In this document: positions 2,117 to 2,500 of the stretch, one piece after another
Numbering within the stretch: the stretch's first letter is position 1
How the letters are laid out: each line of letters starts with the position of its first letter
From: Eledone cirrhosa
Taxonomy: Eukaryota
DNA: 64,000 bases
NCBI GenBank assembly: GCA_964016885.1
Contig: OZ024742.1
Location: 372,000,001 to 372,064,000, forward strand
Reading direction: 5' to 3'
The notes under the pieces: generated by a model
What the model saw: only the letters and a program-made list of their open reading frames with translations
Told to the model about the DNA's origin: nothing
Database searches by the model: none
Position numbers and translations under genes: made by a program

Positions 2117-2119
<3 letters not shown>

Positions 2120-2500
2120 GATATTGAATGAATGGAGGCTGTATTTGTAGGGCCATATTTGTTTCATATATATGTTTCAGGGATGTCATATTGACGATGT
2201 GTTGTGCCTTCTTCAGACAAAATACAATATAGACAGTTTTATAAATAAATAGATTTGACATACCGTTCAACATCGACTTGTATTTGAAAAGTTGATTTGG
2301 CAGTATTTTGTCTGGGGAGGGCATAACATATTGTTAGTGTCATGTCCCTGAGGTATGTATGATGAAATAGATGTGGTTTTGTAGATGTAGTTTCCATTTA
2401 TTTAGTATCGTAAATATACTCCAAATACTTGTTGAGTGCTTTTATATAAGTTATAAATATTTACTAGTTGTAACCCAACAATTTTAAATATAACTTTCCA
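2117..2500 (+). mobile_element. Palindromic mini-insertion of HHR family C, with heavy A>G substitution
   Basis: Arms 2117-2225 and 2303-2412 are inverted copies homologous to 27935-28044; 2413-2500 matches 29763-29852. Confidence 0.85.

Follow-up and report, generated by a model that had tools for sequence, protein, structure and literature searches.

What could leave one kind of substitution, A to G, many times over on the same strand in both arms of an inverted repeat? This question is raised by positions 2117–2412 of the window, by which we mean the whole 64,000-nucleotide stretch of DNA analysed here. The initial annotation had proposed that a hairpin within the transcript of a Penelope-like element (PLE) was hyper-edited by ADAR as RNA and then copied into the genome. 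Comparison with the exact donor of the hairpin and with about 34 insertions that carry it leads us to assign a probability of about 0.9 to ADAR hyper-editing fixed by retrotransposition as the origin of the footprint. The usual view is that A-to-I editing goes no further than the RNA; here RNA editing would have been a source of inherited DNA mutation. The features concerned are as follows.

1..326, minus strand: end of the inverted half of the host insertion (ORF fragment), which runs on upstream of the window and has a second hairpin copy with the same edits (L002/L061)
1930..4633, plus strand: sense half of the same host insertion, a Hydra-clade Penelope-like element by its motifs, 3' UTR only, with the hairpin in one (TA)n tract
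2117–2497, plus strand: whole donor (C') insertion, a 5'-truncated fold-back of 186 nt antisense and 195 nt sense
2117..2225, plus strand: left arm, derived in antisense from the 3' end of the donor C', with 16 A>G
2226..2302, plus strand: loop, remainder of the antisense donor piece, unedited
2303..2412, plus strand: right arm, donor 3' end in sense, with 16 A>G and one G>C that is private to the window insertion
2303..2369, plus strand: what remains of a minimal type I hammerhead motif from the donor, with stem I, CUGANGA, stem II, GAAA, the palindrome and the cleavage site
2413..2497, plus strand: 3' terminal tail of the donor, which lies beyond the stem and is unedited (0/31 A changed to G)
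4438..4592, plus strand: hammerhead-like motif of the host itself, with a stem I of 10 bp, CUGAAGA, a long stem II, GAAA and an 8-nt palindrome
27935..29836, minus strand: family C copy, the homologue used in the initial annotation, unedited; related to the donor subfamily, not identical with it
39934..42408, minus strand: open 825-aa ORF P0001 of sister family A, with RT and then a C-terminal GIY-YIG, used to classify the host

The inverted repeat and its donor

The inverted repeat formed by 2117–2225 and 2303–2412 is real. As RNA, its plus strand is predicted to form a stem of about 108 bp with many G:U pairs (−151.4 kcal/mol, z −20), compared with −64.2 kcal/mol for the minus strand of the hairpin. 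Against the homologue at 27935–28044, where about 16 (left) and about 15 (right) A>G changes had been reported, our recount gave 17 and 14, together with four and five other differences, respectively. The loop shows 13 differences from that homologue, four of them A>G, because the homologue belongs to another subfamily than the donor. The donor was sought with the 77-nt loop alone as query, and the search was hence blind to the state of the arms; it returned copies with a 100% identical loop and with A throughout at the arm positions. Three of them (L072, L095 and L073; loop 77/77 identical) served as the exact-donor reference. Relative to this reference, 16 of the 45 adenines of the left arm are G, with zero other substitutions, and 16 of the 42 in the right arm, with one G>C in addition, whereas none of the 29 loop adenines is changed, so that the reported lack of any excess in the loop holds.

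Over both arms, 32 of 87 adenines are changed (A>G thus makes up 32 of the 33 arm substitutions in the window copy), compared with none of 60 in loop and tail (Fisher p = 4e-9), and the ratio of A>G to T>C in the arms is 32:0 (p = 5e-10). The footprint is thus restricted to the long duplex and, as the initial annotation had it, to changes of one strand. Three results had been named in advance as contrary to the ADAR reading. Two of them, G as the family C state at these sites and parity of T>C with A>G on the plus strand, were looked for and not found; the third, absence of the Gs from DNA reads, concerns the RAD-seq runs described below.

At 27.9 kb the sense strand of family C, itself a Penelope-like element, is the minus strand; pieces of its ORF lie in L065, L067 and L143. 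A typical insertion consists of an antisense piece followed by the sense 3' end, with (TA)n on both sides; inverted, 5'-truncated insertion halves and (TA)n targets are among the features described for Hydra-clade PLEs (PMC8557442). Donor insertions break repeatedly at the same two points, one of which is the 5' start of hammerhead stem I. Two other family C 3' ends (L180 and L203) are independent, non-inverted and essentially unedited, and occur in other host copies, in the same (TA)n tract or the one next to it.

At the edited sites family C carries A. This is the state in 30/30 of the best family C loci, a selection biased to the query, and in every alignable donor locus: of the 60 loop-matching loci, some of them overlapping, 13 have the hairpin junction and are all edited, two were rearranged and dropped, and the other 45 show no A>G (45/45), many of them being DNA fold-backs themselves. 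A stand-alone hairpin at locus L134 (G000:C3:284.528 Mb, 1866–2258) has the same junction and breakpoints and lies in (TA)n, and its arms are free of A>G. It stands between unrelated flanks and, because both of its ends recur among the donors, probably arose by an independent insertion at breakpoints that are used repeatedly.

ADAR prefers adenosines preceded by U or A over those preceded by C or G, with G lowest. When the window copy is compared with the donor, the edited fractions are 17/40 after T, 13/28 after A, 1/10 after C and 1/9 after G, that is, 30/68 after U or A versus 2/19 after C or G (p = 0.007); at the fixed sites defined below the same comparison gives p = 0.005. The earlier observation that most changed adenines follow T or A is therefore borne out, whereas rarity after G is not significant when G is set alone against the rest (p = 0.15 in the window copy; 0/9, p = 0.053, at fixed sites), and the sites shared by some insertions dilute the neighbour bias (p = 0.12). 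The bias fits ADAR. The genome has A_deamin matches at four loci, among them an ADAR2-like deaminase domain at C6:13.64 Mb with CHAE present and a match to human ADAR2 at E 1e-101.

The host element and the hammerhead motifs

Loci that bear the hairpin have, in order on one strand, an ORF, the 3' UTR, the hairpin, and segments matching 2943–4633. In L062, L063 and L141 the host ORF lies upstream on the strand that is plus in the window, and the host's hammerhead-like motif is also on plus; the plus strand is thus the sense strand and the hairpin lies in a 3' UTR, as had been supposed, and the A>G changes lie on the transcribed strand. The copy situated 4.8 kb upstream of the window copy in inverted orientation (L002) is the other half of one host insertion, and all edits are common to both. 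Of the 30 loci matched by the upstream UTR segment, 23 are without the hairpin loop, and among the matches listed most hairpin-less loci show an empty (TA)n site.

The host had been called a Naiad, an assignment that its domain order contradicts. Naiads carry an N-terminal GIY-YIG before the RT and are without a hammerhead motif, whereas the marks of the Hydra clade are a C-terminal GIY-YIG, a CxCx5C linker and DKT (PMC8557442). No N-terminal GIY-YIG precedes the RT here, and a hammerhead-like motif is present at 4438–4592. In P0001 the RT comes first and GIY-YIG lies at the C-terminus, as it does in the L141 host ORF; P0001 has a CxCx5C linker and no CCHH, with CxxC and CxH beside conserved E and N, and both ORFs have DKT as well as RWR, one residue off RWK. 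The donor ORF piece in L143 likewise has a C-terminal GIY-YIG and a CxCx5C linker without CCHH. Insertion into (TA)n and the presence of a hammerhead, both marks of the Hydra clade, are found in host and donor alike. By motifs read against the described clade, both families are Hydra-clade elements. The top Atlas match for P0001 is a cluster in which Cnidaria are commonest, on two records, and a Pfam profile search gave no match for P0001. The likeness extends to inverted 5'-truncated halves and a hammerhead in the 3' repeat (PMC8557442, PMC4209133); the host differs in its size of about 6 kb, its long TA/TG-rich 3' UTR and its edited nested hairpin, the described families being mostly <3 kb (PMC8557442).

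The donor motif follows the minimal type I hammerhead of PLEs (PMC4209133) and has the CUGANGA/GAAA/UH core (with A, T or G at N7 among donor subfamilies), an 8-bp stem I, an unpaired base before stem II, and an 8-nt palindrome for helix III. As a monomer it folds no better than shuffles, which is expected of a dimer-type motif. In the window copy the edits changed the GAAA box (2352 and 2353) and the predicted cleavage-site base (2361) to G; across the family, the GAAA box is altered in 34/34 insertions and 2361 is G in all. Changes in the GAAA box or at the cleavage-site base abolish hammerhead cleavage, and at the level of sequence the edits broke the donor's predicted hammerhead core in all 34 insertions. 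The nested predicted ribozyme would in any case be sequestered inside the long stem, and minimal hammerheads of PLEs are described as cleaving poorly in vitro (PMC4209133). The host's own motif has a fold z of −4.9, is conserved in sister family A and has six matches in the window. In an Rfam search, the top 150 hits, all weak, included no hammerhead; they were sub-threshold matches of TA repeats to miRNA families.

Every change in the arms keeps pairing on the plus-strand RNA and disrupts pairing on the minus strand. The RNA stem retains most of its predicted stability, with −147.9 kcal/mol when edited versus −169.6 kcal/mol in L134, whereas the DNA or cDNA hairpin goes from about −114 kcal/mol before the edits to −42 and −29 kcal/mol after them.

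The window holds several further repeats. In a second Penelope-like ORF, P0002 (44352–47999, minus strand; 1216 aa), the GIY-YIG is C-terminal, the linker is of the CxxxxCxxC type and a long insert is rich in Asn; it is flanked by 500-bp direct repeats (43848–44347 and 47971–48470) and looks Neptune-like. A family A insertion forms a perfect inverted pair of about 4.7 kb per arm at 15225–24927. Two near-identical LINE copies on the plus strand (10845–15114 and 48510–51938; 99.8%) encode an APE endonuclease and an RT. A short element end occurs at 55375–55536, where it includes an 82-nt perfect palindrome (55455–55536), and at 1766–1917, and recurs in (TA)n tracts at several loci. A 310-bp tandem repeat occupies 55991–57416, and a long array of shorter tandem units of mixed length fills 59806–64000. 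The source genome, of 3.0 Gb, is rich in (TA)n. Elsewhere in it, one host copy (L192) has an insert in a (TA)n tract, about 100 nt downstream from the UTR segment that was matched; this insert resembles the 5' end of an 18S rRNA.

The record of edits across the family

The junction motif of the hairpin has 41 matches genome-wide, namely 40 edited host copies and L134, and none of the 40 host matches has an unedited hairpin. The pre-editing state was taken from the donors because no host copy with an unedited hairpin survives. With seven partner halves dropped, and with L021, which has a variant junction, left out, 34 insertions were compared. Changes in their arms that are fixed, shared and private number 28, 15 and 12 for A>G and zero, one and four for T>C. 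All 28 fixed changes are A>G, and shared changes comprise 15 A>G versus four others; the loop has no fixed change. Private A>G arose on 12 of 44 A versus T>C on four of 86 T (p = 4e-4), and all arm changes after the founder amount to 27 of the 59 remaining A versus five of 87 T (p = 1e-8). Over about 3 kb of host flank (ORF and UTR) there is no such asymmetry, A>G at 49/1093 equalling T>C at 48/1018. Without four copies on small contigs the A>G figures become 28, 14 and 11. The share of arm adenines fixed as G is 31–44% in the 32 untruncated insertions.

The 32 changes of the window copy are made up of 28 that are fixed in the sub-lineage and four that are shared polymorphisms. The proposal that this hairpin was hyper-edited as RNA and then copied into the genome agrees with the edited arms and the unedited loop, tail and donors, whereas the further claim that the editing took place in the transcript behind the window copy does not hold: the founder burst, as read from the sequences, is older than that transcript.

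Shared states at common sites follow the tree of the flanks much better than shuffled states do (site 2157 takes four steps versus 10.9, and site 2326 three versus 11.0), and were therefore inherited through master copies. Nevertheless, even when the 15 shared sites are themselves used in building the tree, they call for no fewer than 37 changes, and two or more steps are needed at 10/10 common arm sites versus 7/19 flank sites (p = 0.008). Two insertions carry only the 28 fixed edits and none carries all 43. The flank tree is weakly supported and homoplasy affects some flank sites as well, with incompatible pairs of common sites at 61/171 in the flanks versus 26/45 in the arms. We consider it likely that editing continued in later rounds of retrotransposition, and the simplest reading is probably one founder burst followed by slower editing in later rounds.

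In seven insertions both halves could be paired (e.g. L061–L064, L145 and L146), and the halves have the same edit haplotype, never differing by a new A>G. This suggests that, in Penelope-type integration, the inverted halves of one insertion are both copied from one template molecule. A haplotig check, outside which the pair L063 and L164 lay, found no shared flanks except other repeats.

Mechanism, rival explanations and precedents

The host 3' UTR received, in one of its (TA)n tracts, a C' Penelope-like element in the form of a 5'-truncated fold-back. Judged from sequence and folding, host transcripts would then have contained a perfect AU-rich duplex of about 110 bp. A>G is seen on the sense strand only, and therefore RNA, not minus cDNA, would have been changed. 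Very probably, ADAR deaminated about one-third of the adenosines in this duplex; a cDNA made by the host RT with G in place of I would then have integrated in the germline and founded the sub-lineage with its 28 fixed A>G. The G:U-rich stem is predicted still to fold as RNA (−148 vs −170 kcal/mol), so later rounds could have added edits, with a yield of 15 shared sites and of 12 private changes at about 0.3 per insertion.

The continued editing, and only that part of this account, has a rival of some weight, though clearly the less probable one: a single burst, or a few differently edited founder cDNAs, with later diversity produced by template switching, gene conversion and G>A back-mutation. 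The flanks also fail the four-gamete test, in 217/1596 pairs, six private G>A reversions occur at fixed sites, and the seven pairs of halves lack new A>G differences, all of which would suit this alternative. However, reversion amounts to about 0.2 per fixed site, compared with about 2.5 changes at each of the 15 shared sites, and the excess of private A>G over T>C given above also speaks against it. Recombination, moreover, looks low, because 12 of the 19 common flank sites need one step only. Continued editing thus remains the reading we favour.

The other alternatives bear on the footprint itself and are all far less probable than a single burst. Selection for the RNA stem, acting on ordinary mutations while G:U is tolerated and the DNA palindrome decays, would explain why every change pairs on the plus-strand RNA and breaks pairing on the minus strand, yet it predicts C>U wobble changes as well, expected at about 38% from the flank spectrum and seen in 0/28 fixed changes (p = 2e-6), and a constrained stem should vary less than its loop, which has no fixed change at all; we regard it as very improbable. 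Much the same low standing is given to an event at the DNA level, whether deamination of adenine in a cruciform or single strand, an error of the RT at the hairpin, or the action of ADAR on cDNA within an RNA:DNA hybrid. ADAR does deaminate dA in hybrids in vitro, as reported in PMC12925331, but deamination of minus cDNA would give T>C on the sense strand, of which there are none fixed and five in all, and the same DNA hairpin is unedited at L134 and in other donor fold-backs. An assembly artefact, by polishing with edited RNA reads or by systematic sequencing error, is more improbable still. Three RAD-seq DNA runs, in which sampling is patchy, contain nearly all A-state donor reads, with about 0–8 non-A reads per fixed site per run and hence almost no G-state molecules. 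Such scarcity would suit an artefact, yet under patchy sampling it tells neither for nor against the G alleles. Against an artefact stand the 40 host copies on many contigs, with lineage-structured haplotypes that track flank mutations, the same edits in inverted halves of opposite genomic orientation, and the assembly of unedited donors with an identical loop as A. The left arm in the G state is also present in an independently assembled contig of 112 nt (depth 157); the run that gave it is of unrecorded type and may stem from the sample used for the assembly itself. Least probable of all is reversed polarity, with G ancestral and family C having lost it by G>A hypermutation: a formal possibility only, given that the arms are one donor sequence in opposite orientations that differ at different sites and always by A>G on plus, and that diverged C subfamilies are all A, with the hammerhead core intact.

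For ADAR hyper-editing fixed through reverse transcription the precedent is in avian retroviruses, in which ADAR-type A-to-G hypermutation of an inverted repeat or U3 reached nearly 50% of A (Hajjar & Linial 1995; Felder 1994; as summarized in PMC12925331). There, as here, a dsRNA stem lay in a reverse-transcribed RNA and a large share of its A was fixed as G in DNA (PMC12925331); the present case differs in that the element is a non-viral PLE, the change is germline-inherited and carried by about 34 insertions with signs of further editing, and the stem arose from a nested insertion. The 'DNA editing' by APOBEC known from genomic LTR retrotransposons also leaves clustered, strand-biased deaminase footprints that retrotransposition fixes in the genome (PMC4866542, PMC2873906), but these are G>A from C>U on cDNA, whereas here A>G lies on the sense RNA and in the stem only. 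The account in PMC4866542 reports such APOBEC footprints to be absent from 19 invertebrate genomes, in a screen that filtered for G>A over A>G. Hyper-editing of inverted repeats in transcriptomes (Alu and others) shares the long duplex, the A>G clusters and the depletion of G upstream of the edited A, and differs in that the changes remain in the RNA (PMC2873906); for de novo Alu inserts, the data given in PMC3415434 include no editing in 52,039 bp. Our literature search, in a collection with few subscription papers, found no published inherited ADAR footprint in a retrotransposon family.

The case is an unusually clean one, offering an exact unedited donor, an unedited stand-alone twin, hosts with empty sites and a family tree in one genome. 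It implies that ADAR reaches retrotransposon RNA in the germline and that inosine-heavy RNA can still be reverse-transcribed and integrated, and it allows editing to be measured per round of retrotransposition, a rate that since the founder comes to about 0.3 new G for each insertion. More tentatively, ADAR may have been a recurrent, structure-guided germline mutagen of this lineage, with the founder burst enabling its spread, a possibility to which we give rather low odds. The burst would then have broken the nested sense-strand ribozyme and collapsed the DNA or cDNA palindrome while keeping the RNA stem as a substrate. If that is true, each round of retrotransposition leaves a record of germline ADAR activity in such families, and the same process, acting earlier, could have produced the TA/TG tracts that are G-rich on the sense strand of these 3' UTRs. 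Whether ADAR restricts or helps such elements becomes testable, as does the idea that A>G footprints have been missed because earlier screens selected for G>A.

A second, independent edited hairpin was sought among 678 inverted-repeat alignments in the loci collected, refiltered to 42 rows, and none was convincing; the protein search for further Penelope families returned the same family only and no loci, which places independent families outside this screen.

Conversion of (TA)n into (TG)n by ADAR found no support, slippage of TA/TG units yielding the same pattern. The host 3' UTR has six internal TA/TG tracts (1892–3711), every one of them G-rich on the sense strand, and shared A/G differences stand to C/T differences as 45 to 5; in the pure TA run that directly follows the hairpin on its 3' side there is no G in 1,004 nt over 29/34 insertions, and external flank tracts are biased both ways (10 towards G, six towards C, seven ties). 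More widely in the window, the internal TA/TG tracts of Hydra-type 3' UTRs all have an excess of G on the sense strand, where A and G together roughly match T, at 1892–3711 and 21543–23886 (plus strand) and at 16126–18453, 31274–33214 and 37429–39369 (minus strand). The tract at 2984–3394, with 69 G, 10 C, 132 A and 200 T, looks as if (TA)n had gained A>G, and slippage explains it equally well.
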